A program made the position numbers and the translations under genes. This document shows, one piece after another, positions 8,958 through 22,852 of a stretch of 64,000 nt of DNA. Within the stretch, counting starts at the first letter, position 1; every line of letters starts with the position of its first letter. The notes beneath the pieces are model-generated. The model was not told the origin of the DNA and ran no database searches. It saw only the letters and a program-made list of their open reading frames with translations. Source of the stretch: Deltaproteobacteria bacterium (GTDB taxonomy: Bacteria; Desulfobacterota; Syntrophia; Syntrophales; UBA2185); assembly GCA_026388495.1 (NCBI GenBank), contig JAPLJQ010000408.1, positions 1,939 to 65,938 on the forward strand. The letters are read 5' to 3'.

Positions 8958-11246
8958 TTATGCAACACCTTGATATTCCAGCCTTTTCAGGAGTTTTTTT
9001 CCAATGGCCTTCAGAAACCGGTTATGAATAACGATTCGACCAAGCCAGGTTCGGCTCAAAAGAATAGCAAACCTTGCAACCGCCTGCACCTCCGGAGGCG
9101 TGGTCAGCAACGCAGTATCGGCAGTTGACGAAGGAGGTTTGGTATTCCATAGCCAATCCGCTGTCTCCCCAAGACGTTTGCATTCAAGCGACAGGGTTGC
9201 CAATTCCCGCCCAAAGCCCTGGCTGATCGGATATCGCGGATGGTCAATCCTGAGCTGATGGGCTTCGTCCAGGAGTGCAAGAAAATTATCAATCATACCC
9301 TCCCATGATAATTTTAACGCGGCAAGCGCCTTGCCCTGTTTCGACATCTGTTGCAATTTTGCAGAATGGGAAAGCAAGCGGCGAATTGCATCCAAATATT
9401 CTCGAAGCTCGTTGTCCCCCTGCGGGATCAACACGCCCGCATCCCGGGTCACAATCTCGTCATGTCCGCCAACATCGGCCACGACAGGCACGACACCGGC
9501 AGCCATTGATTCCAGGAGTGCGATCGAAATGCCCTCATATTGGGAAGGCATCAGGAAAATATCCGAGGCGATCAGAATATCAAGCCATCTTTGATGCGGA
9601 ACCGAGGCCAGCATCTGGACATGGTCAGCCAAATGATACTGGCCCAGCAGGTCTTTCAGTTGCGCCTTCAGCTCACCATCGCCGATGATGAGCGCCCGGA
9701 ATATAAGACCCTGATCGCGTGCCGCCCTGAGGATATCCGCCAGCAGGAACGGGCGTTTTTGTTCACAAATCCGTCCGGCAAAGACAATCAACGGCGTGTC
9801 TTCCGGGATATTCAGCTCCGACCGCACCGAGCTTCGCACTTCATCGGGCTGACCGGATTGGGAAACCCTTACGCCTGTATACATCACCCTGATTCGCCCG
9901 CCGTCGGCGCCACGGTTCTTCATCCATCTGGCCAGATGCCTGTTGGTTACAATATTCAACTCAAGTGCATCCTGATAGCCCACACCGAACCTGGGATGCC
10001 CCCCGTTCAACCAGTGAGGTTCCTCGGCATGGCACATGTCAACAAACGCCACCCCCGGCGAGACAGCCCTCAGATAGGGCAGGAAGTAGTATCCGATGGT
10101 GCTGCCTGTAATGACGACCGTATCGATTTTCCGGGACTGGATCAGGTATGCCAGGAATCGCGGATAGTCCGACGCATGGAGGATATTCGGCAAGATGAAG
10201 ATATCGGGCGTAAAGCGACTGAACTGATGCTCCCAGTGGTGATCGGCCGGCAGGGTCGCGCAGATGGTTATATCATGCCCCTTAGCCGTCAATCCCTCGA
10301 TCAGGTCAAGATTGACGCGGTCGGCTCCGCCCGTTGTCATCCAGGGGAGGATGAACATGATCCGTCTCCCCGACGGATTCGCCGACAGAGAATTGGACAC
10401 AGCGGAATTTGTCTCGATCGTCTCGTATGGCGCCGGATGACGTCGCACAGGCTCCGGGAAGTGTTTGTCCAGGCCTTCATATTTCCGGTGCATCCTTCTT
10501 TCGAATTCCTCGTTGACATTTCCGGACCGCATGATCTTTTCAAAACGACCGTCGCCGCGTTTACGATACCATAGCAGAAATTCACGGATCGTGTAGCCCC
10601 AGTGCCCCGCTTTTGCCATGGCCAGCCAGAAATCCCAGTCCTCATGGCCAAACCGGATGGACTCGTCAAAACCGCCGCAGCCTTCATACGCGGAACGTCG
10701 TACCACGGCAAAAGAGGGGCCGCTGTTGGCCTGCAAGTGCGTTTTGCCCCTTTCAAATCCAGTCGTCCAAAGATATTCCTGATTGCCAAACACGACGCTG
10801 CAAGCATTGCAGAAAGCAAACTCCGGGTTGGAATCGAGGAACCAGACACATTTCTCAAGGTACGTCGGTTCCACCATGTCGTCGCTGTCCAGGAGGCAAA
10901 CGTAGCGGCCTGACGTGTTGCGAAAGGCATTGTTGCGCGCTGCGCCGGGCCCGGCATTTTCTTGTCGGATGACCTTGATGCGCTTGTCTTTTGCTGTTAC
11001 ACCGACAAGTCGCTTTACAGATTCCTCGTCCGTAGAACCATCGTCAACAATCACCCATTCCCAGTTCTGTAAGGATTGTGCCTGCAGCGATACAAACGTC
11101 TCAACAAAGAGTTCCTCCGTGTTGTAGTAAGGGGTAATAACCGACACGTCAATGTGCTCAAAAACGGAATCTCCCCTCTTGTAATTGCGCGGGAGTGCCC
11201 TGCGGCCAGGCAAATCGGAAAAGTCAGGTTCCAGGCAATTGATCAT
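8958..11246 (-). CDS. two-domain glycosyltransferase (N-terminal GT2 + C-terminal GT4)
   Basis: 762 aa; GT2 motifs VSVITPYYNTEE, VIVDDGSTD, LDSDDM; GT4 motifs ILPWMTTGGADR and PSQYEGISIALLESMAAGVVPVV. Confidence 0.85.
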   Translation of the reverse strand: MINCLEPDFSDLPGRRALPRNYKRGDSVFEHIDVSVITPYYNTEELFVETFVSLQAQSLQNWEWVIVDDGSTDEESVKRLVGVTAKDKRIKVIRQENAGPGAARNNAFRNTSGRYVCLLDSDDMVEPTYLEKCVWFLDSNPEFAFCNACSVVFGNQEYLWTTGFERGKTHLQANSGPSFAVVRRSAYEGCGGFDESIRFGHEDWDFWLAMAKAGHWGYTIREFLLWYRKRGDGRFEKIMRSGNVNEEFERRMHRKYEGLDKHFPEPVRRHPAPYETIETNSAVSNSLSANPSGRRIMFILPWMTTGGADRVNLDLIEGLTAKGHDITICATLPADHHWEHQFSRFTPDIFILPNILHASDYPRFLAYLIQSRKIDTVVITGSTIGYYFLPYLRAVSPGVAFVDMCHAEEPHWLNGGHPRFGVGYQDALELNIVTNRHLARWMKNRGADGGRIRVMYTGVRVSQSGQPDEVRSSVRSELNIPEDTPLIVFAGRICEQKRPFLLADILRAARDQGLIFRALIIGDGELKAQLKDLLGQYHLADHVQMLASVPHQRWLDILIASDIFLMPSQYEGISIALLESMAAGVVPVVADVGGHDEIVTRDAGVLIPQGDNELREYLDAIRRLLSHSAKLQQMSKQGKALAALKLSWEGMIDNFLALLDEAHQLRIDHPRYPISQGFGRELATLSLECKRLGETADWLWNTKPPSSTADTALLTTPPEVQAVARFAILLSRTWLGRIVIHNRFLKAIGKKLLKRLEYQGVA

Positions 11247-12673: not shown

Positions 12674-13936
12674 TCAAAACAATTTCCTTCCGGACAATCT
12701 ATTGAGCAATCGCACTCCTCTGTGAGATTGAATCTTTTCGAGCCTTTCAGCGAGTTGCCGGGCATTGCCGTCATTGAGAACGGCAGCGGCTTCCCATGCC
12801 GCTCGCTGGGACTCCAGCCAGGCATTGCCGGTCAGCAGGCCTTGCACTTGCGCTTGCAGCGCGGCGATGGACTGCTCGCGCTCGGCAACAACCTTCTGCC
12901 ATGCCTCGCATTGCGACGACAGCCAGGCTTTGCCGGTCAGCAGGTCTTGTACATGGGTCTGCAGATCTTGAACCTGGGCCTGCAGATCTTGAACCTGGGC
13001 CTGCAATGCAAAGAAGGTGGTTATGCTAACCCCGGATTGCAGCAATTGTAACAATTGAATCGTTTGAGGATGATTAAAATCAATAAGATCGTAAAACGCC
13101 GGTTGATCTTTCATCAGCGATAAAAAGAGCATCGTTTCCAAAGAAAGATCATGGTTATTTTTAAGCAATTCTAATATTTCAGAAAAAGGAACATTCGCAT
13201 TCAACTCTTTCAAATTGTCAACAATCAGCCAATTAACTTCAAATTGAACTTTTAAACCACCCTCTCTCTCATGAACCGTATTTTCTGGATGCATCCGGTA
13301 CTTGAGCAGGTCTTCCTTTATAAGATGAATCTGATATCTTCTTGAGAATCTAAGCAGCATATCCCAATCATGCGCGTATCTCAAACCTTTAAAGCCGCCG
13401 CATTCCTGAAAGCACTTTCGCCTGACAAAAAGGTTCGATGTGGTGATCATTATATTCTTCGCAAATGCATTGGGATAAAATTTATCTTCATTAAAAAAAA
13501 GAAGGGCGCTTCTGTACCAGTCCAGCCAGGCCTTCACTTTCGGTGTAATGCTTTCCTTTACCGGCGTTCCGCTTTGGTCAATACCTTCAACCATGGACAT
13601 GACAACCGAATAGCGTGCATTGCTTTCCAGATAATCTAAACACGTCTCCAAGCGTTTCGGCCCATAGACATCATCAGAATTAAGGATGGAAATATATTCC
13701 CCCTGAGCCAGAGAAATCCCCCTGTTTATGGCCGAATGTGCGCCACTGTTCTCTTGGCTGACATATTGAACCCTTTGATCGTGAACTGATAATATTCTCT
13801 GCTCGGTGGAATCGGTGGACCCATCATTGATAATAATTATTTCGAAATCCTGATAGCTCTGGTTTAAGACGCTGTTGATTGCTTCCGTGATATATTTTTC
13901 ATGATTATATGCGGGTATAATTACACTAATTTTCAT
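12674..13936 (-). CDS. glycosyltransferase family 2 with C-terminal coiled-coil extension
   Basis: KISVIIPAYNHEKY, IIINDGSTD, LNSDD; C-terminal LQAQVQDLQAQVQDLQTHVQDLLTGKAW...LQAQVQGLLTGNAW heptad repeats; ATG at 13936 has GGAAAG RBS (alternative ATG at 13954). Confidence 0.85.
   Translation of the reverse strand: MKISVIIPAYNHEKYITEAINSVLNQSYQDFEIIIINDGSTDSTEQRILSVHDQRVQYVSQENSGAHSAINRGISLAQGEYISILNSDDVYGPKRLETCLDYLESNARYSVVMSMVEGIDQSGTPVKESITPKVKAWLDWYRSALLFFNEDKFYPNAFAKNIMITTSNLFVRRKCFQECGGFKGLRYAHDWDMLLRFSRRYQIHLIKEDLLKYRMHPENTVHEREGGLKVQFEVNWLIVDNLKELNANVPFSEILELLKNNHDLSLETMLFLSLMKDQPAFYDLIDFNHPQTIQLLQLLQSGVSITTFFALQAQVQDLQAQVQDLQTHVQDLLTGKAWLSSQCEAWQKVVAEREQSIAALQAQVQGLLTGNAWLESQRAAWEAAAVLNDGNARQLAERLEKIQSHRGVRLLNRLSGRKLF
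12938..13006. repeat. 21-bp tandem repeat (about 3.3 units) inside the GT2 coiled-coil region
   Basis: CTGCAGATCTTGAACCTGGGC exact at 12959-12979 and 12980-13000, degenerate unit before and partial unit after; each unit encodes one heptad AQVQDLQ; also a roughly 105-bp-period repeat (12814-12859 vs 12920-12964). Confidence 0.9.
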
Positions 13937-13999: not shown

Positions 14000-14365
14000 C
14001 TACCATGGATGCTCCAATGAGTTTCTTTCCGGAACACCGGCTTTGTGAAATGTTGATGGAGAGGATCGGTCGAAGAAGTAATTCCTCATATCTCGGTTAA
14101 ACAGACGGTAAAGCATCGCAATGGGTGTCAGTAAAAGAAAAAAGATGATTGACAGCAGTATTTTCGACATGAAGTTGCCGATACGTTCCGATAGCTTCAG
14201 CCAAAGCCTCGCAATGAGGTCCGCTAACGGATTTTGCTTGAGAGATATCACGAGAAATCCGATCGCAAGCCATAGCAACCACTTCACCTCAAATATGAGG
14301 TGGCATAAGATCGCCGCAAGGGATAGGACGAGAAGCGTTCTCAGGACATCTATCTGTTTAATCAT
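14000..14365 (-). CDS. SxtJ-like small membrane protein
   Basis: 121 aa, 3-4 TM; block RIGNFMSKILLSIIFFLLLTPIAMLYRLFNRD matches my memory of SxtJ-family proteins; sits downstream of carbamoyltransferase + DUF5989. Confidence 0.6.
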   Translation of the reverse strand: MIKQIDVLRTLLVLSLAAILCHLIFEVKWLLWLAIGFLVISLKQNPLADLIARLWLKLSERIGNFMSKILLSIIFFLLLTPIAMLYRLFNRDMRNYFFDRSSPSTFHKAGVPERNSLEHPW

Positions 14366-14374
14366 AATGATCCC

Positions 14375-14524
14375 TTAGAAGAGTGTGTAAATAAACGGGG
14401 CGACTGCCGATCCGCTCGACATCATAATCAAAACTCCGATAAACAACAGAACGATGATTACCGGTAAAAGCCACCACTTTTTTCTTTCTTTCATAAAACC
14501 CCAAAGATCTTTTAGAAATTCCAT
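14375..14524 (-). CDS. DUF5989-like (SxtK-like) small membrane protein
   Basis: 49 aa from MEFLKDLWGFMKERKKWWLLPVIIVLLFIGVLIMMS; single TM; conserved partner of carbamoyltransferases. Confidence 0.65.
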   Translation of the reverse strand: MEFLKDLWGFMKERKKWWLLPVIIVLLFIGVLIMMSSGSAVAPFIYTLF

Positions 14525-14532
14525 TGTGACCC

Positions 14533-16401
14533 CTAATCGAGCGCGAAGGTTCGCTTCCATTTATCCTTATTATTCCATTCAGGCTGCTCTTCCTTGATAA
14601 AGAGAATATTGCCAATGACAAGCACATCAATTTCCGTTGCCATGAAACAGGAGAAGGAATCTTCGGGCGTGCAGACGATCGGTTCACCCCGCACATTAAA
14701 TGAAGTATTCACGATGACACCGTATCCTGTTTTCTCTTTGAATCTCTTTATAAGCCTGTGGTATCGGGGATTGGTATCTTTATGAACAGTCTGAATACGG
14801 GCAGAAAAGTCAAGGTGGGTGATTGATTGAACATCACTGCGCGGTGTATACAGTCGGTCGAAGAGCGGGAGAGCATAATAATCGACAGGCAAAGATTTTC
14901 GACGGTTTTCTACCACATCAGCAATAAGAAGCATGTAGGGGGAGTCAGTCTTGAGATCGAAGAATGATTGGGTATCTTCTGCAATCACGGAAGGAGCGAA
15001 AGGACGGAATCCTTCGCGATATTTTATTTTCAGGTTGAGCTTTTGCTGCATTTCTTTATTACGAGCATCCCCCAGTATCGAGCGGTTGCCAAGCGCACGA
15101 GGCCCCCACTCCATTCGTCCCTGGTGCCATCCGATAACTTTACCGTCATTCAGATGATCCGTGACGATATCTATCATTTTTTCAAAATCATCGATACGAT
15201 GGAATATAGCCTTGTATTTTCGGGCCATGAGTTCCGTATCGAGATCACTAAATTCTGGACCTATATAGGCGCCCTGCATTGTATCGTGCTGATTATCGGC
15301 AGCGGCACGTTCGGCGCCATAATAGTGATGGTATGAGGCAAGCGCCGCTCCGAGCGCCCCTCCGGCATCGCCGGCCGCCGGCTGTATCCAGATGTTCTCG
15401 AAAATCCCCCTTTTCAGCAGGTTCCCGTTGGAAACACTGTTGAGTGCGGAACCGCCCGCAAGGCAAAGATACTTCGCACCGGTCATCTTTTTTGCGGTAA
15501 CGGCCATTTTAAAAACGATCTCATCATGCAGGAGCTGTATCGTATACGCAAGATCACAGTGGTGTTGCTCAATATTGCTTTCAAAACGTCTGGTTTCAAA
15601 CCCGAAAAGTTCCTTCCATTTCTTTTCGTTGATCATTCTGAGACCCGTTGCATACTGAAAATAATCCTGATTCATCCAAATCGAGCCATCGTCTTTGATA
15701 TCAAGCAAAGAGGAAAGGATTGTTTCACGATATTCTTTGATTTTCGGCGAATTCGGGTTCCCATAAGGCGCCATGCCCATTAACTTATATTCACCGGAAT
15801 TAACCTTAAAGCCGAGAAAATAGGTAAATGCCGAATAAAGCAGCCCCAGCGAGTGGGGAAATCTCATTTCTTTAAGGGGCCTGATGACATTGCCCCGGCC
15901 ATGCATAATGGTCGCAGTCGACCATTCGCCAACACCATCAACGGTGAGGATTGCCGCTTCATCAAAGGGTGATGGGAAAAATGCACTGGCCGCGTGACTA
16001 ATATGATGTTCGGTGAAAAGCAGCTTCAGCTTTGTAACATCAAGCGATGGCTCGATCACTTGCAGCTCGTCCCTGATGAGCTTTTTTAGGAATAATTTCT
16101 CCTTTATCCACACCGGAACGAAAGAGAGGAATTGTTTAAGACCCTTGGGTGCATTCACGTAATATGTCTCAAGCAAACGCTCGAACTTGAGCAGCGGCTT
16201 ATCATAGAAAACCACGGCATCGAGTTCTGCAATCCTGAAACCGCTCTGCATCAGGCAAAACTTCACCGCTTCGACAGGGAACCTGCTGTCCTGTTTGATT
16301 CGGGTAAAACGCTCTTCCTGAGCTGCGGCAACGATGCGGCCATCTTCAATCAACGCAGCGGCAGAATCATGGTAGAAAGCTGAAATGCCAAGTATTTTCA
16401 T
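14533..16401 (-). CDS. carbamoyltransferase (NodU/CmcH/SxtI family)
   Basis: 622 aa; N-terminal KILGISAFYHDSAAALIEDGRIVAAAQEERFTRIK hallmark; size typical of the family. Confidence 0.9.
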   Translation of the reverse strand: MKILGISAFYHDSAAALIEDGRIVAAAQEERFTRIKQDSRFPVEAVKFCLMQSGFRIAELDAVVFYDKPLLKFERLLETYYVNAPKGLKQFLSFVPVWIKEKLFLKKLIRDELQVIEPSLDVTKLKLLFTEHHISHAASAFFPSPFDEAAILTVDGVGEWSTATIMHGRGNVIRPLKEMRFPHSLGLLYSAFTYFLGFKVNSGEYKLMGMAPYGNPNSPKIKEYRETILSSLLDIKDDGSIWMNQDYFQYATGLRMINEKKWKELFGFETRRFESNIEQHHCDLAYTIQLLHDEIVFKMAVTAKKMTGAKYLCLAGGSALNSVSNGNLLKRGIFENIWIQPAAGDAGGALGAALASYHHYYGAERAAADNQHDTMQGAYIGPEFSDLDTELMARKYKAIFHRIDDFEKMIDIVTDHLNDGKVIGWHQGRMEWGPRALGNRSILGDARNKEMQQKLNLKIKYREGFRPFAPSVIAEDTQSFFDLKTDSPYMLLIADVVENRRKSLPVDYYALPLFDRLYTPRSDVQSITHLDFSARIQTVHKDTNPRYHRLIKRFKEKTGYGVIVNTSFNVRGEPIVCTPEDSFSCFMATEIDVLVIGNILFIKEEQPEWNNKDKWKRTFALD

Positions 16402-16458
16402 ATATTTTGATTAGGAATTCTTTGGTAGGAAGTATAGGAGAACCGCCCTTGTATGTCA

Positions 16459-16498
16459 ATGATTAATCTGGCCACATGATTAATCTGGCCACCAGATT
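16459..16498. promoter_or_regulatory. 17-bp perfect tandem duplication plus hairpin upstream of the carbamoyltransferase gene (candidate operator)
   Basis: ATGATTAATCTGGCCAC at 16459-16475 and 16476-16492; AATCTGG-CCA-CCAGATT inverted repeat 16482-16498; 58-100 bp upstream of the start at 16401. Confidence 0.5.
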
Positions 16499-16540
16499 GT
16501 GGGGTGTGGCGCTGATCATCGTGGCAGAGATGTGTAACGG

Positions 16541-17575
16541 CTACCGGAGTGCCTGTTGCCCGAGCCATGCGCCCAGCTTTTCCGCCCACCACGCGTGAAT
16601 CCGGGTTCCCGGATGACCCTTTCCGCCGACCAGGAGCTTCTCCGGGCGTTTTTCCTCTCCGCGGTAAACCACTTCCAACTCCTCGATTCCTGAGGTTCGC
16701 ATCCCGTCGCTCATGAGCCGATACTCTTCCGGCCCGGGCGGTCCCCAATCTGAAAGGGTTGCGACCAGAAGACGTGCGTTCTTTTCTGCAAGGAACTCCT
16801 GCATCTGGCGAAGCAGAAGAACGGTGACCTGCATCTGATCCTTTTCGCGGTCCGCCAGCCGGTATTGCAGTTCCGTCCGATGGAGAAGTGAGACCAGCGC
16901 AGAGGATTCTTCAAACGGCCAATTGGAGACGACAAACGGAGGAAATGCCTCAAGCCGTCCGTCGCGCAATGCCACATGAGGAGGTGAAAATCGCTGACCG
17001 CCAAACGAGCGAAATGCGTCGAGCATGTAATACGTAAGGACATTGCGTCCGGCATGGAAGGGCACAAATCCATAGATGACCAAAGCCGGCCGGATGCGAC
17101 GCTGGTCGACAACCTCGCGGAGCAACTGTAAGGACTGGTATGTGCCATATCCCGGTGTGCCGAAGTTCAGGAACCGCACATGGGGAAATTTTTGCTGCAG
17201 TAACCATCCGAACGTTTCGTCATCGCGCACTCCATAGCCCTCGGCGAACGAGCAGCCGATAATGATGACTATCGGGCCGTTGGCGGTGGCCGGAGTCCCG
17301 GTTGCGCGCGAACCGCCGGGAAGAATGGTCATCGGTTCATGCGTTCCTTCGTGCGCAGGGTGGACTCCGGGGTTGTTCCGCCATCCCAGGGCGGGATCCC
17401 GCAAGGCCCATCCCGTGGACTGCTCCGACTGTTGGACGCTAAATACCGGCACGTCGGCCAGTCGCGCCATAACCTCCCCGATCCCGAGGCACAGCGCAAG
17501 CGTGAAGATGACTCCCGCAGTCCATAGTTTTACTATTCTCGACAACCGCTCGTGGACCTCCCTCCATGTTTTCAA
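16541..17575 (-). CDS. membrane-anchored hypothetical protein (possible SGNH/GDSL-like hydrolase or acyl-esterase fold)
   Basis: 344 aa; N-terminal TM anchor LWTAGVIFTLALCLGIGEV; block IVIIIGCSFAEGYGV loosely like SGNH block I; the track start is a TTG codon, so the start is uncertain. Confidence 0.45.
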   Translation of the reverse strand: MKTWREVHERLSRIVKLWTAGVIFTLALCLGIGEVMARLADVPVFSVQQSEQSTGWALRDPALGWRNNPGVHPAHEGTHEPMTILPGGSRATGTPATANGPIVIIIGCSFAEGYGVRDDETFGWLLQQKFPHVRFLNFGTPGYGTYQSLQLLREVVDQRRIRPALVIYGFVPFHAGRNVLTYYMLDAFRSFGGQRFSPPHVALRDGRLEAFPPFVVSNWPFEESSALVSLLHRTELQYRLADREKDQMQVTVLLLRQMQEFLAEKNARLLVATLSDWGPPGPEEYRLMSDGMRTSGIEELEVVYRGEEKRPEKLLVGGKGHPGTRIHAWWAEKLGAWLGQQALR

Positions 17576-17600: not shown

Positions 17601-18593
17601 CTACTCGAGTAAGGCTTTCCATTTTCTATAACGCGTCAACCATCGCCATCCTTGTGAGGCATGAATTTCATCCAACTGACGACTTTTCTCTGCAATTTGT
17701 CCCTGGAATGCCTGAATTTGCTGCAATTGCATATCTCTTTCTTGTTTCAGTCCTGTTAATTGAAGCTCCTTTTCTTTCAGTGCCGTTTGATGCTCCCTTA
17801 ACCACTCATCGGCCTGCTGCAGCCTTTTGTCACGGTCCGACAACGTGTTCTCCAATTGACATACTTGTTCAGAAAGTTTCTCCTTTTGATGGTCCAGTTC
17901 AATGTTTATTCCCAGATGATAAAAAAAATCGGAGACACAGGTTTCATTGTCTCTTCCCTGTTCCAAAAATGCCCGCACCTCTTCCTCGATTTGCTCGCCA
18001 ACGGCAAGAACACCCAAACCATTGCCAAACTTGAACTCAAAACTTGGATAGTTAATTGAAATCTCTTCCCATAGCCGCCAAACACCAAACTCCCGTTCCC
18101 GCACATGGGAATCATGAAACAGCACGACCCCTCTTTCACTCATCTTGGGTAACCACGATTCAAAATCATGCTTGACGGAATCATAGGTGTGGTGGCCATC
18201 AATGTGCAGGAGATCAATGGAGCCCTCAGGAAAATTATCCAGGGCATCATCGAAAAGGCATTTCATCAGGCTTGAAAAGCCGCCATATAAAGGGTCATGA
18301 TAAGCGCGCAGCTCTTCCAAGACCTCTTCGCCGTAAAATCCGGCCTGTTCATCGCCCTGCCAGCTATCCACGGCATAACAGAGGGTATTCAAGGCAATCT
18401 CACCCACAGCCTGGCAGAATGCGCAATAGGAATCCCCTTTGTGGGTTCCCAACTCAACAAATGTTTTCGGCTTGCACATTGCCGTAATCACGAAGGCAAA
18501 GGGAATATGCAGATGCCACGAGGCGACATCCGTGAGTCTCCGCGGCCTACGAAAAGCGATGCCGTAATCAAGCAAATTGAAAGGCATTTTCAT
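17601..18593 (-). CDS. class I SAM-dependent methyltransferase (Methyltransf_24/TylF-like) with C-terminal coiled coil
   Basis: 330 aa; FVELGTHKGDS, LLHIDGHHTYDSV, VVLFHD; last ~100 aa heptad-rich (EKLSEQVCQLENTLSDRDKRLQQADEWLREHQTALKEKELQLTGLKQERDMQLQQIQAFQGQIAEKSRQL). Confidence 0.8.
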   Translation of the reverse strand: MKMPFNLLDYGIAFRRPRRLTDVASWHLHIPFAFVITAMCKPKTFVELGTHKGDSYCAFCQAVGEIALNTLCYAVDSWQGDEQAGFYGEEVLEELRAYHDPLYGGFSSLMKCLFDDALDNFPEGSIDLLHIDGHHTYDSVKHDFESWLPKMSERGVVLFHDSHVREREFGVWRLWEEISINYPSFEFKFGNGLGVLAVGEQIEEEVRAFLEQGRDNETCVSDFFYHLGINIELDHQKEKLSEQVCQLENTLSDRDKRLQQADEWLREHQTALKEKELQLTGLKQERDMQLQQIQAFQGQIAEKSRQLDEIHASQGWRWLTRYRKWKALLE

Positions 18594-19183
18594 ATAAACT
18601 TACGCAGCAGGTAATGTCTGAACCCCGCTTTCCACAAAGATACTGTTGATGAAGCGGTTTTCCGGCACACCAAAACGGTATCCTGCCACCTGTCGCTTTC
18701 ATCGGGATAACCGGTCGTTCCATTTTGTGAATAAACCTCTAAAACTTCCAGAGAAGCGAAACGGGCAAGCGCCGTGAATCCGTCAGGATAAAAACGCCAA
18801 CAGTCAACCGGATAACGATGCTCGGGGCCGCCTGAGGGAGCAATGAGACAGCATAATCCCCCCGGTTTTAAGACCCTCGCAATTTCGAGCATGGTCAGCC
18901 AAAAGAATTCGATATGTTCGAACGCTTGCCCCGAGACCACGACATCGGCCGAGTCTGATTTGATTTCCCGCCAGTGATAGGGATCTTGAAGAACAATGTC
19001 CACATTCTTGCCGGCTGCCATATCGATCCCGCGGTATGTCCAGTAGGAATCCTCAAAACACCCCCTGTAAGAACCGTTCACATCCAGGCTTCCCAGATCG
19101 AGTATAAATAATGGCTCGTTGTTCTTGCCCCCTAGATACTTCATTCTGAACGCCAGCATTTTATCCAGGGAACTTTGATGCAC
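18590..19183 (-). CDS. class I SAM-dependent methyltransferase (Methyltransf_11-like)
   Basis: ILDLGSLDVNG and VVSGQAFEHIEFFWLTMLEIARVLKPGGL; likely GTG start at 19183 with AGGAGG 9 nt upstream (alternative ATG at 19159); the long track ORF to 19333 overlaps wzt. Confidence 0.7.
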   Translation of the reverse strand: MHQSSLDKMLAFRMKYLGGKNNEPLFILDLGSLDVNGSYRGCFEDSYWTYRGIDMAAGKNVDIVLQDPYHWREIKSDSADVVVSGQAFEHIEFFWLTMLEIARVLKPGGLCCLIAPSGGPEHRYPVDCWRFYPDGFTALARFASLEVLEVYSQNGTTGYPDESDRWQDTVLVCRKTASSTVSLWKAGFRHYLLRKFI

Positions 19184-19184
19184 T

Positions 19185-20465
19185 TTAATTGTCCTCCTGA
19201 AAAAATCCGACCTTTGTATTTGGGACAGAAAATATCCCGGCGGGCATCCGAACGGGAACACTTTTGAAAATAACCGCATCATGCAGATAGTGGCATTGCA
19301 TATGATCTGACTGAGTGCCGTCGGCGACGGCAACAGTCAGGGTATATTCCCCCTCGGCGAGATTGGGCCATGCATCCATCTCAAAGGTGATCACATATCT
19401 GCGGCCGCTCAATAAAGATTGGAGTTCTTTTTTGATCAATTGCGTGTTGTCGCCGAGTATCTCCCGGCCGAGACGATCCCTGACGATAAAGCCGACGATG
19501 GGGTTTGCTATGTCCTGATGGGCATGCAGCGCCATGCCGATCTCGCACGCCTGCCCGGAATAGGCGACGCCGTTGCCGCCCCCCCGGGAAACAAGACGCA
19601 CCGCCTCGATGGTCACGCGGCGGTCTCCAAACTGCCTGATATGGTCCCCGACCGGTGTAAATCCACCCGTATTGAAATCACGCCGGGATGCCCCCTCGCA
19701 CTTCAGTACCGGCGCCGCAAAACTGCCGTTCTCTTCATACATAAACTGCAGGTATTTCTCCACAACAAGCTTCGGCAGCCCGTCCATGACGATCTTTCCC
19801 GATTCGATCCAGATCGCCCGGGAACACAGCTCCGTCACGGCAGCCGTATCATGGGAGACAAAAATCACCGTGCCGGCCTGACAAAACGCCCGGATCCGGG
19901 CCATGCATTTTTGCTGGAAACGAGCGTCACCCACGGCCAGCGCCTCATCCACCACGAGGATATCCGGCGACACGTGGATCGCGACAGCGAAGGCCAGCCG
20001 GACATACATTCCGTTGGAATACATCTTTACCGGCTGTTCCATGAAGCCGCCGATACCGGCAAAGGCGGCAATCTCATCGTATTGCGATTCGATCTCCGAC
20101 CTGGAAATCCCCATGATGGCCGCGCTCATATAGACATTTTCGCGCCCCGTGAATTCCGGATTGAATCCCGCGCCCAGCTCTAATAAGGCGGCGATCCGGC
20201 CGCTCACCGCCAGTTCGCCCTCGGTCGGATTCAGTGTGCCGCAGATGATTTGCAGCAGCGTTGATTTCCCGGACCCGTTGGATCCAATGATCCCGACCGT
20301 TTCTCCTTTTTTGATTTCGAACGAGCAATCCCTGAGGGCCCAAAATTCCCGATAGAACCGTCTTCGCGCACGCCAGAGAGATTGTTTCAGCCGGTCCAAC
20401 GGCTGATCATAAATCTGATAGCACTTGCCTAAATTATGGGTGCGAACTGCAAAATCAAGAGACAT
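19185..20465 (-). CDS. wzt: polysaccharide/O-antigen ABC exporter ATP-binding protein with C-terminal Wzt-type glycan-binding domain
   Basis: 426 aa; Walker A GSNGSGKST, signature YSNGMYVRLAFA, Walker B ILVVDEALAVGD; ~170-aa C-terminal beta-rich extension as in Wzt/TagH. Confidence 0.9.
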   Translation of the reverse strand: MSLDFAVRTHNLGKCYQIYDQPLDRLKQSLWRARRRFYREFWALRDCSFEIKKGETVGIIGSNGSGKSTLLQIICGTLNPTEGELAVSGRIAALLELGAGFNPEFTGRENVYMSAAIMGISRSEIESQYDEIAAFAGIGGFMEQPVKMYSNGMYVRLAFAVAIHVSPDILVVDEALAVGDARFQQKCMARIRAFCQAGTVIFVSHDTAAVTELCSRAIWIESGKIVMDGLPKLVVEKYLQFMYEENGSFAAPVLKCEGASRRDFNTGGFTPVGDHIRQFGDRRVTIEAVRLVSRGGGNGVAYSGQACEIGMALHAHQDIANPIVGFIVRDRLGREILGDNTQLIKKELQSLLSGRRYVITFEMDAWPNLAEGEYTLTVAVADGTQSDHMQCHYLHDAVIFKSVPVRMPAGIFSVPNTKVGFFQEDN

Positions 20466-20492
20466 ATATTTTCCAGGAATAATACATCTTTG

Positions 20493-21353
20493 CTAGAGGA
20501 CGTCTGCAAAGGCCTTTTTGCTTTTCATGAACCACACGAACCCAAAAATCAACACTACCCCGGACAAGCCCATGCTGAAAAAAAACCAGGGCCAGTCCGG
20601 GGAAAGGCCCCACAGCACCGCCCTGCGGGCATCCTCCACAAACAGGGCAAACGGATTGATCCGGAAAAAAAAACGAAACTGTACGGGTACGGCGCTTATG
20701 GGGTAAAAGATCGGGGTCAGAAAGAAAAGAATTGTGGTCAAGACCCCGATAACGGTTCCTATGTCTCTTACAAATACCCCCAGAGAGGCCAGAAAATAGC
20801 CACAGCCCAGCGTGAACAACATCATCGGCAACCATACGAGCGGCAGCATGAGCACGGTCCAGTGGATAAAATGGTTGATGATAAAGATTCCCGCTAACAG
20901 CACCCCCAGACTGAAAACAGCATTGATCAAGGCGCTCAGGAGTCGCACAAGCGGAAGAATCTCCAGAGGGAAAACCACCTTCTTGACATAATTGGCGTTG
21001 CCCAGCACCAACGAGGGGGCCGAATTGACCACCTCTGAGAAAACGCTGAAGGTGATCAATCCCATAAACAGGGCCAGGGCGAAAGCGGCTTTGCCTTCTC
21101 CGGCCTCGACACCCCACCGGGCCTTGAAGATGACGGAAAATACAAAGGTGTAAACGCACAGCATGACCAGCGGCTGAATGAACGACCATCCCAGCCCGAT
21201 AAACGATCCCTTGTAGCGTCCCACAACCTCGCGCCACGTCAACTGCCGGATCAGGTCCCGGTATTGCCAGAGGTGCGCTGCGATCCGGACCGGATTGAAA
21301 AACCCGCCGACGCGCTCACCCCCGGGGGTTATGATTTTGATGTTGTCAGCCAT
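20493..21353 (-). CDS. wzm: ABC-2 type polysaccharide exporter permease
   Basis: 286 aa, 6 predicted TM; directly upstream of wzt; typical Wzm size and topology. Confidence 0.85.
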   Translation of the reverse strand: MADNIKIITPGGERVGGFFNPVRIAAHLWQYRDLIRQLTWREVVGRYKGSFIGLGWSFIQPLVMLCVYTFVFSVIFKARWGVEAGEGKAAFALALFMGLITFSVFSEVVNSAPSLVLGNANYVKKVVFPLEILPLVRLLSALINAVFSLGVLLAGIFIINHFIHWTVLMLPLVWLPMMLFTLGCGYFLASLGVFVRDIGTVIGVLTTILFFLTPIFYPISAVPVQFRFFFRINPFALFVEDARRAVLWGLSPDWPWFFFSMGLSGVVLIFGFVWFMKSKKAFADVL

Positions 21354-21564: not shown

Positions 21565-21951
21565 TTAAACAGCCAGCACGGATTCCTGATATTGGGAGAC
21601 GGAAGGATCAACCGTCAGCAGCAGCATCCCTTCCGTGCGGGCCTGGGCCAGCAGCAGGCGGTCGAAAGGGTCTTTGTGAAGCAAAGGCAACGTCTCGATT
21701 GCAAAGGCGTGCTCCGTGGTTACCGGCAGCTCGGTGTATCCATGCACGATGAGCATCTTTCTCAAGCGGCGCGGATCCACCTTGAAATCCTCCCGTCCCA
21801 GTCCCCGTTTGATCACAATCTCCCAGATACTGGCCGCACTGAAAAACAATACGTTCTCGGCCGTCGTCAAAAGGGTGCGGGCTGATTCGGAGAGCTTTTC
21901 CGGCTGCCCTGCGGCCCACAGGAGAATGTGCGTATCCAGCAGCAGTTTCAC
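21565..21951 (-). CDS. vapC: type II toxin, PIN-domain ribonuclease VapC
   Basis: 128 aa; (V)KLLLDTHILLW with acidic PIN residue, HKDPFDRLLLAQA; GTG start overlaps the antitoxin stop (GTGA). Confidence 0.85.
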   Translation of the reverse strand: MKLLLDTHILLWAAGQPEKLSESARTLLTTAENVLFFSAASIWEIVIKRGLGREDFKVDPRRLRKMLIVHGYTELPVTTEHAFAIETLPLLHKDPFDRLLLAQARTEGMLLLTVDPSVSQYQESVLAV

Positions 21952-22369: not shown

Positions 22370-22852
22370 TTATTTGCCAGAACGGACCGGGAGTATCCGA
22401 GCGCCGGAGTCGGCCGACTGGGGAGTCATGCGCCGTCCACCATTGGTGAAATTCACGCGTGTAGCATTGGAACGGATCGCGTCTGACGTCCAGGGACAGC
22501 AAGCAGTCAGGGTGATCAGGGTGGTCAGATTATATCCATTATGGCCCTTAACCGAATCGTCATACAAATTCCCCAGCTCAACCTGCGTCGGCATCCGCCA
22601 GTCTGTATAGCCGCCCCCGCGATAATTCTGGCAATAGGACTTGGCGTTCGTCCAGTTAATGTCGCTCCCGTTGTCCTTTGCCGCCCACATCAGATTCGAG
22701 CTTGTATCCAGGACAGTACCATTGTCATAGGCGATGAAACGACCGTCCCTGCCAGTCTCCCCTGCTGTGGCACACTTCGCCGCAATAAAAGTCCCTACTA
22801 AAATAGCCCACACCGCTATCACGACCATTGTTCCTAATGTCGTCTTTTTCAT
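22370..22852 (-). CDS. DUF1566 (Lcl C-terminal-like) domain protein, secreted or membrane-anchored
   Basis: 160 aa; N-terminal hydrophobic segment; LMWAAKDNG...NWTNAKSYCQNYRGGGYTDWRMPTQVELGNLY hallmark of DUF1566. Confidence 0.8.
   Translation of the reverse strand: MKKTTLGTMVVIAVWAILVGTFIAAKCATAGETGRDGRFIAYDNGTVLDTSSNLMWAAKDNGSDINWTNAKSYCQNYRGGGYTDWRMPTQVELGNLYDDSVKGHNGYNLTTLITLTACCPWTSDAIRSNATRVNFTNGGRRMTPQSADSGARILPVRSGK

Follow-up and report, generated by a model that had tools for sequence, protein, structure and literature searches.

A GT2 glycosyltransferase with a heptad-repeat stalk of variable length in an ABC-transporter-type glycan locus of the Syntrophales

In a 64,000-nucleotide stretch of DNA from a Deltaproteobacteria bacterium of the Syntrophales (UBA2185; GenBank assembly GCA_026388495.1, contig JAPLJQ010000408.1, positions 1,939 to 65,938), referred to here as the window, a gene for a family GT2 glycosyltransferase ends in a tail of heptads, part of which is encoded by in-frame tandem repeats of 21 bp. 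What is such a tail for? Is it a coiled-coil stalk that holds the catalytic head at a set distance from an anchor? Or, is it a handle for oligomerization and assembly, the length of which drifts as repeats are gained and lost? Coiled-coil rulers are an accepted means of fixing polysaccharide length in pathways that depend on a transporter of the ATP-binding cassette (ABC) type, based on engineered insertions and deletions in WbdD (PMC5082667) and on WbbB (PMC11231755). The original prediction for this gene, which was made from the DNA alone, cited these two proteins as precedents for coils that set polysaccharide chain length, and in this it was correct: the coils of both set that of the O antigen (PMC5082667, PMC11231755).

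The catalytic head and the heptad tail

The protein begins with MKISVIIPAYN, and its homologues start at the same point. Its first part matches Pfam Glycos_transf_2 (PF00535) over residues 4–141 (E = 1.4e-35, 123 bits against a cut-off of 23.3). In an AlphaFold2 monomer model built on 30 homologues (mean predicted local distance difference test score, pLDDT, 76.6) the GT-A core has a pLDDT of 80–96. Residues N37, D38, G39 and S40 (NDGS) and residues D88 and D89 (SDD) are invariant across 30 homologues. The best Foldseek matches to the catalytic part are WrtF, SpsA, K4CP and TarS/TarP, with E = 1e-15 to 1e-16 for SpsA, K4CP, TarS and WrtF, and a PDB sequence search (29 matches) agrees with this placement among ordinary GT2 enzymes. 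Sequence and model together assign the head to the GT2 family and the GT-A fold, with nucleotide-binding and DxD-type acidic motifs.

Beyond the head, the model contains a single helix of 83 residues that runs uninterrupted through both TGK/TGN sites and is followed by a short break and two short helices. At a rise of 0.148 nm per residue this helix would be about 12 nm long. When the tails of 16 homologues were cut into 7-mers starting from a C-terminal anchor, the resulting 267 heptads were 70% hydrophobic at position d (Leu 50%, Trp 15%) and 64% hydrophobic at position a (Asn 14%), against 19–25% at positions e, f and g. The heptad phase is held through the entire tail, and the register is kept across length variants. 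This bears out the original prediction of a GT2 with a coiled-coil-type tail. The tail is probably an extended coiled coil, and it is expected to oligomerize. Beta-branched residues or Asn at position a, together with Leu at position d, favour a parallel dimer. In the stalk of this GT2 the pattern of V, I or N at a and L at d suggests a dimer.

The whole tail had been described as heptad repeats, which is right for the phase but not for the repeat units. Recognizable LQAQVQD heptads make up only three plus one units. The remaining tail consists of a 35-residue module of five heptads, LQxxVQxLLTGxAWLxSQxxAWxxxxAEREQSIAA, the core of which is G-N/K-A-W-L-x-S-Q-x-x-A-W, and of a conserved basic end, IQSHRGVRLLNRLSGRKLF. 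We propose this end as a membrane or complex docking element. In its topology the protein has the catalytic head N-terminally and, at its other terminus, the conserved basic end with a net charge of +5. Searches with the tail gave nothing in the PDB, either by sequence or with Foldseek, and in Pfam only a sub-threshold match to the coiled-coil-like DUF3450 (17 bits against a cut-off of 32.6).

At the DNA level, exactly two perfect units of CTGCAGATCTTGAACCTGGGC lie in tandem, at 12959–12979 and 12980–13000. With up to 3 mismatches allowed, this unit has no match in 100 dinucleotide-preserving shuffles. The neighbouring unit at 12938–12958 has diverged by about 5–6 mismatches, as counted by eye, and is not recovered at 3 mismatches or fewer; the positions 13001–13006 hold a 6-nt partial copy. 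Two perfect and two degenerate copies had been noted, and while the perfect ones stand, the degenerate ones are in fact one diverged unit and one stub. A related unit is found 105 bp away. The older duplication of about 105 bp, first noted between 12814–12859 and 12920–12964, is confirmed and can be extended (Table 1). Tandem arrays of 21 or 105 bp are also present in the DNA of six homologues, with a repeat identity of 75–91%; the 105-bp arrays among them have 2.1–2.7 copies that are 77–90% identical.

The GC content of third codon positions (GC3) is 0.63 in the tail and 0.42 in the catalytic part of the gene. Does this jump mark a recent recombination joint at the domain boundary? We rejected this reading, since all eight homologous genes with DNA have a GC3 that is 0.04–0.26 higher in the tail than in the catalytic part (for example 0.59 against 0.33 in the related locus L167). 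A jump common to all eight genes is a trait of the family or a codon effect of the repeats, and it may reflect the codon bias of the repeat units or a separate origin of the tail. On the strand opposite to the tail there are several open reading frames of 63–109 residues (12722–13051, plus strand). These look like side effects of the GC-rich repeats, and there is no support for their being genes.

Stalk length in relatives and the stalk on other enzymes

Close homologues, with 70–87% identity in the catalytic domain, are of two forms, tail-less proteins of 299–302 residues that end in QLLQLLQ and tailed proteins of 392–532 residues. The names attached to them are only those of Syntrophales, Deltaproteobacteria or Desulfobacteraceae proteins from metagenome-assembled genomes. 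In the tailed homologues, tail length was measured as the distance from an anchor in the catalytic domain to the C-terminal anchor. It ranges from 62 to 216 residues among about 20 close relatives. Lengths of 62, 76, 83, 90, 97, 104, 118, 125, 132, 195 and 216 residues are all 6 mod 7, and 16 of 21 tail lengths belong to one mod-7 class. The remaining five, of 87, 115, 129 and 143 residues and one fragment, all fall in the class 3 mod 7. Such lengths correspond to the local loss of 3 or gain of 4 residues, which is as large as a classical coiled-coil stutter. For example, the tails of one pair with 96.6% identical catalytic domains differ by 11 residues, which is one heptad plus a 4-residue insertion (stutter).

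It had been predicted that gain or loss of one 21-bp unit would change the coil by exactly one heptad, and the tails of relatives do differ almost only in steps of seven residues. Each tail has 1–4 heptads of the LQxxVQD type, a number that varies between relatives, and 1–5 of the 35-residue modules. Judged from these comparisons, tail length evolves fast and in heptad units, which bears out the evolutionary part of the original prediction. One tail-less protein is 89.7% identical to a tailed one. Are the tail-less forms artefacts of gene calling or of frameshifts? This was ruled out for L169, where a stop follows right after QLLQLLQ and there is no tail in any frame, and likewise for L087, where 800 further bases are without a match to the tail.

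The tail is not confined to GT2 enzymes. An exhaustive search with the tail only gave 88 representative proteins, and when 57 representatives were scanned against Pfam they included GT2 enzymes (12), class I methyltransferases (11), GT1/GT4 enzymes (5), sulfotransferases (about 6) and pyruvyltransferases (2). In the alignment consensus of this tail family, the module retains its positions G, W, L, Q, R, W and A. When the tail alone was used in a word-indexed protein search, the only matches were three contig-edge fragments and a piece of locus L005. There, two methyltransferase domains take the place of the GT2 on a tail of the same type; the end of the tail and the genes downstream are also the same, and the double methyltransferase has the same position relative to Wzt and to the gene for a two-module GT2+GT4 protein that is described below. 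Also in L005, a 127-residue protein (P0122) was considered as a stand-alone tail protein and rejected as an artefact of a run of N; the frame upstream is that of the double methyltransferase, which continues into the tail (L005 5139–7438).

The presence of the tail on several enzyme classes, together with the exchange in L005, indicates that it is a portable stalk for glycan-modifying enzymes. By profile comparison this stalk appears to match no existing Pfam family. There are two indirect hints that the head may add a chain-terminating group for recognition by the Wzt module: the double methyltransferase on this tail at the corresponding place in L005, and the known caps that are made by enzyme classes bearing the tail.

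The glycan locus and its stalked enzymes

The genes from about 5.4 to 64 kb (5377–64000), nearly the whole window, are all on the minus strand and glycan-related. They include those for an ABC exporter, with a Wzt (ABC_tran and Wzt_C, E = 3.8e-31) and a Wzm (ABC2_membrane, E = 3.4e-26). Genome and metagenome contig scans gave three close loci, L006, L086 and L087, and further context came chiefly from exact-protein look-ups. Wzm and Wzt with a carbohydrate-binding module are also present in related loci. The order Wzm, Wzt, Methyltransf_11 protein, Methyltransf_24 protein, stalked GT2, a variable gene and the GT2+GT4 fusion recurs in L006, L086, L166, L168 and L173.

The Methyltransf_24 protein is a second stalked enzyme. 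In a crude heptad scan of all open reading frames of at least 150 residues in the window, the stalked GT2 and this protein take the first two places. The best Foldseek match of its head is the sugar O-methyltransferase MeT1. Its stalk is modelled as one 96-residue helix (residues 217–312, window positions 17658–17945) with a pLDDT of about 90, against 85.7 for the whole AlphaFold2 model. It has the basic end ASQGWRWLTRYRK, with ASQGWRWLTRYRKWK after the helix, and this resembles the end of the GT2. In 27 homologues the stalk is 66, 80, 87 or 143 residues long, and in 24 of the 27 the length is 3 mod 7. One of the homologues (P0153) has LQSQVQN heptad repeats like those of the GT2.

The GT2+GT4 protein is likely to be the polymerase. 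Its gene neighbours that of the stalked GT2 in L166, L168, L171, L172, L173 and the contig of P0005 (from the gene list only), and it is present in L005 too. The C-terminus (8961–9100, minus strand) is conserved and strongly basic, SRTWLGRIVIHNRFLKAIGKKLLKRL, with a net charge of +8. It is like the ends of the stalked enzymes but is without a stalk, and a docking or membrane element may be what these proteins have in common.

In the window, a cassette of four genes (14003–17575, minus strand) lies between the methyltransferase and the GT2. It encodes an unknown protein of 344 residues, a carbamoyltransferase (Carbam_trans_N/C), a DUF5989 protein and SxtJ. The cassette is found only here and in L001, which is an identical copy, whereas the methyltransferase and GT2 genes are adjacent in five related loci. 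GC3 is 0.48–0.56 in the carbamoyltransferase, DUF5989 and SxtJ genes, 0.66 in the gene for the 344-residue protein, and 0.53–0.71 in Wzm, Wzt and the downstream glycosyltransferase and acyltransferase genes. The lower GC3 of the three genes and the restriction to one lineage suggest that the cassette is an acquired module, putatively for O-carbamoylation.

Elsewhere, the gene upstream of the GT2 encodes a different stalked enzyme. In L171 (2797–4071) and L169 (8782–10011) this is a sulfotransferase-like protein, which in L169 contains about 18 tandem copies of the 14-residue unit SLSQAVSERDGQIA. In L172 (1409–3961) it is a stalked protein of 850 residues with a pyruvyltransferase domain. The stalked enzymes of L169, L171 and L172 all end in a motif of the S-x-S-W-R-L-T-R-P-L-R type, which is similar to the basic end of the GT2.

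The other genes of the region 5377–64000 encode many glycosyltransferases, at least eight further methyltransferases, sugar-nucleotide enzymes and three radical SAM enzymes, two of them with B12-binding domains. Two large proteins of the window, of 596 and 612 residues, are without a Pfam match. Located between the exporter and the next glycan genes is a small open reading frame (21565–21951, minus strand), the start of which (LLDTHILLW) resembles that of a PIN/VapC-type toxin. It adjoins the gene for a 160-residue protein with an Lcl_C domain (22370–22852, minus strand; Pfam E = 8.8e-16).

Table 1. Position of the stalked GT2 gene, its parts and the conserved genes of its locus. Coordinates are those of the window.
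Feature	Position	Strand	Basis
Stalked GT2 glycosyltransferase, coding sequence, 420 residues	12677–13936	-	Open reading frame list and sequence; ATG at 13936, stop codon 12674–12676
Catalytic part, residues 1–301: GT-A fold and small helical domain	13034–13936	-	Pfam, AlphaFold2, Foldseek
Stalk, residues 305–387: one continuous alpha-helix with heptad a/d pattern	12776–13024	-	AlphaFold2 secondary structure, heptad composition, register across homologues
Conserved basic C-terminal end IQSHRGVRLLNRLSGRKLF, residues 402–420, net charge +5	12677–12733	-	Kept in all tailed homologues; helix of residues 406–415 in AlphaFold2
21-bp in-frame tandem array	12935–13005		Tandem Repeats Finder: period 21, score 100, 3.4 copies with 90% matches and without indels
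Older 105-bp (35-codon) direct duplication	12794–12964		Repeat search: 12794–12859 against 12899–12964, 66 nt, 79% identity
ABC exporter: Wzt with C-terminal carbohydrate-binding domain (19188–20465) and Wzm (20496–21353)	19188–21353	-	Pfam
Methyltransf_11 protein, conserved member of the Wzt, Methyltransf_11, Methyltransf_24, GT2 order	18593–19333	-	Pfam, synteny
Second stalked enzyme, Methyltransf_24 O-methyltransferase, 330 residues	17604–18593	-	Pfam PF13578, E = 7.6e-26
GT2+GT4 two-module glycosyltransferase, 762 residues, conserved downstream partner	8961–11246	-	Pfam, synteny

The role of the stalk

In ABC-transporter-dependent O-antigen synthesis a terminator caps the chains, only capped chains are exported, and the carbohydrate-binding module of Wzt recognizes and binds the cap (PMC11231755). 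The terminators include methyltransferase-kinases (WbdD, O7 ORF6) and glycosyltransferases (WbbB, and O4 ORF7 with its C-terminal coil). An extended coiled coil is the mark of these proteins, the terminating module is at its distal end, and WbbB is described as an established ruler (PMC11231755). The coil of WbdD is trimeric; insertions into it raise, and truncations lower, the modal chain length (PMC5082667). With Wzm, a Wzt that bears Wzt_C, and a methyltransferase on a heptad-stepped stalk of its own, the locus of the GT2 carries the published signature of chain-termination systems with coiled-coil rulers (WbdD, WbbB, Klebsiella O4 ORF7).

Our own leaning, and it is a slight one, is towards a GT2 on a ruler-type coiled-coil stalk that acts at the chain end. 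The GT2 would be held on a parallel coiled coil, the short basic end of which docks at the membrane or at the polymerase complex, in an ABC-transporter-dependent pathway where the carbohydrate-binding domain of Wzt would recognize the capped chain end. The stalk would set the active site about 12–15 nm from the anchor, and at that distance the enzyme would act only on chain ends that had grown that far. The head-distal topology, the type of locus and the conserved partnership with a stalked cap enzyme of varying kind suggest that the enzyme acts at the non-reducing end. In the window the GT2 may add a terminal sugar that is then methylated by the neighbouring stalked O-methyltransferase, and in the family at large it possibly adds the sugar that a partner methyl-, sulfo- or pyruvyl-transferase then caps. 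Stalk length would evolve as units of 21 bp (one heptad) and 105 bp (five heptads) are duplicated or lost in frame, each such change retuning the distance while leaving the coiled-coil register intact.

To judge by analogy, this design is already known from WbdD, WbbB, O4 ORF7 and FutA/FutB. Like the GT2, WbdD (Escherichia coli O8/O9a, Klebsiella O3/O5) has an N-terminal catalytic head, an extended coiled coil and a membrane-interacting C-terminal end, which in the GT2 is a proposed one. In its locus, too, Wzm comes with a Wzt that bears a carbohydrate-binding domain, and a separate multi-module polymerase is encoded nearby. The head of WbdD is a methyltransferase-kinase rather than a GT2, however, its coil is a trimer (PMC5082667) as opposed to the dimer suggested here, and there is one stalked enzyme in its locus as opposed to two. 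The closer analogue of WbdD would be the neighbouring stalked methyltransferase and not the GT2, and of the 29 matches in a PDB sequence search with the stalked GT2 none is a chain with the name WbdD or WbbB.

The O4 ORF7 (GT137) of Klebsiella pneumoniae and WbbB (O12; a GT99 beta-Kdo transferase) share with the GT2 a glycosyltransferase head on a coiled coil, an ABC-transporter locus and a Wzt with a carbohydrate-binding module. In ORF7 the coil is also C-terminal, and the protein is membrane-associated (PMC11231755). Both differ in family and fold, the enzyme described here being an ordinary GT-A GT2 without the Kdo-transferase signature, and WbbB has polymerase modules on its own polypeptide. 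The closest solved fold to the catalytic part is WrtF, an O-antigen fucosyltransferase of Rhizobium tropici (PDB 9omh–9omn; Foldseek E = 4e-16), which also combines GT-A with a helical domain. WrtF has been modelled with an amphipathic membrane helix, about 20 residues long, at its C-terminus, and the Wzt of its locus has a carbohydrate-binding module (PMC12595478). Unlike the stalked GT2, to which it is about 20% identical, it is a polymerizing enzyme, has no coiled coil and is without the DxD metal site, which in the GT2 and its homologues is conserved as SDD.

FutA and FutB of Helicobacter pylori, which we take to be GT10 enzymes, have a basic membrane-anchoring end. They carry a variable number of C-terminal DD/NLRV/INY heptads (PMC4205683), and the distance at which the active site is placed depends on this number (PMC5358919, PMC4205683). 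In the passages of these two papers that cite Nilsson 2006, it correlates with how large the modified O-antigen chains are (PMC4205683, PMC5358919). The likeness lies in a glycosyltransferase followed by variable C-terminal tandem heptads, the count of which differs between relatives. The repeat unit is another one, DD/NLRV/INY (PMC4205683) as against LQAQVQD and the 35-residue WLxSQxxAW module, FutA and FutB decorate the polymer rather than cap it, and their published variation is within strains or during infection, whereas here variation is seen only between related lineages. With its GT2/GT-A head and its different repeat unit the stalked GT2 would work like this family but is not a member of it. 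This closest precedent for variable heptads, the second stalked enzyme and the 35-residue module were all absent from the original prediction.

Could the tail instead be an assembly or oligomerization handle that dimerizes the enzyme and recruits it to the complex of polymerase and terminator, its length being irrelevant and drifting by slippage of 21- and 105-bp units? We think this unlikely, but it is a serious contender, and much that weighs against a ruler-type stalk agrees with it. Orthologues with 80–87% identity over the aligned catalytic part are tail-less, and tail-less forms are closely related to tailed ones, so that the tail is not needed for the catalytic fold and the stalk is optional in this enzyme family. 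Lengths range 3.5-fold among relatives, a spread so broad that it could reflect weak constraint on absolute length. Steps of seven residues follow automatically from slippage on 21- and 105-bp repeats, and slippage alone, without selection for register, could explain them. The methyltransferase and GT2 stalk-length pairs of five loci (80/104, 87/104, 80/129, 66/132 and 80/118) give no positive trend, with n = 5 being too few to conclude, and the module's conserved positions (G, W, L, Q, R, W and A) point to a binding surface more than to a plain spacer. Further points against the ruler-type stalk are a pLDDT of only 55–78 along the stalk helix in the monomer model; a hydrophobic moment of the C-terminal end that, in a test for an amphipathic helix, is not above that of shuffled sequences (p about 0.3); NCBIfam matches that are all far under their cut-offs and indicate neither donor nor acceptor; and a host organism that is known only from metagenomes. 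On the other side, 60–200 residues are more than a handle needs, the topology of head, coil and basic end and the type of locus match those of proven rulers (PMC11231755, PMC5082667), and indels outside the obvious repeats are likewise 7n or stutter-sized.

A bolder extension of the stalk model gives the W-rich 35-residue module (G-N-A-W-L-x-S-Q-R-x-A-W-E) a function of its own. The stalk would then be more than a passive spacer: the module would offer the growing glycan or partner enzymes a binding surface that is repeated along it, and two independently tuned stalks, one on the glycosyltransferase and one on the cap-modifying enzyme (methyl-, sulfo- or pyruvyl-transferase), would determine in which order and within which window of chain length terminal modifications are made. 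We offer this as speculation and hold it to be rather improbable.

A still more doubtful alternative is that the GT2 is a third polymerase module that works with the GT2+GT4 protein, its coil pairing with that of the methyltransferase in a heteromeric ruler, like the Klebsiella O7 ORF6 split up. The GT2 gene is always adjacent to that of the GT2+GT4 protein, the basic motifs at the C-termini of the GT2 and the methyltransferase are related, and the polymerase modules of published systems are variably split between coiled-coil and stand-alone proteins (PMC11231755). The two coils, however, differ in length (about 83 and 96 helical residues in the window and, between anchors in other loci, 66–87 for the methyltransferase against 104–132 for the GT2) and in composition, Q/A/W-rich as opposed to charged, and their lengths vary independently. 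Moreover, published polymerase modules are membrane-proximal while the GT2 is far from the conserved C-terminus, and other loci pair the GT2 with a sulfotransferase-like or pyruvyltransferase protein that has an unrelated coil.

Finally, that the 21-bp repeat is a contingency locus, in which fast slipped-strand gain and loss of units would give glycan variants within a population, is most improbable: perfect tandem units are present and the heptad number of futA/futB changes during infection (PMC5358919), but there are only two perfect units and the DNA of the GT2 gene, repeats included, is 100% identical in four independent assemblies from two sequencing projects, so that there is no sign of high-frequency switching, and the repeats of homologues, at only 75–91% identity, are old.

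This family provides a natural series in which one catalytic domain is combined with stalks that range from 0 to about 30 heptads. A second stalked enzyme, with a length that varies independently, is often encoded in the same loci. If the locus were reconstituted, the series would let stalk length be related to chain length or to the position of terminal modification. Additionally, one 35-residue stalk module is common to glycosyltransferases, methyltransferases, sulfotransferases and pyruvyltransferases, and it could aid the annotation of terminator-type enzymes in uncultured bacteria.

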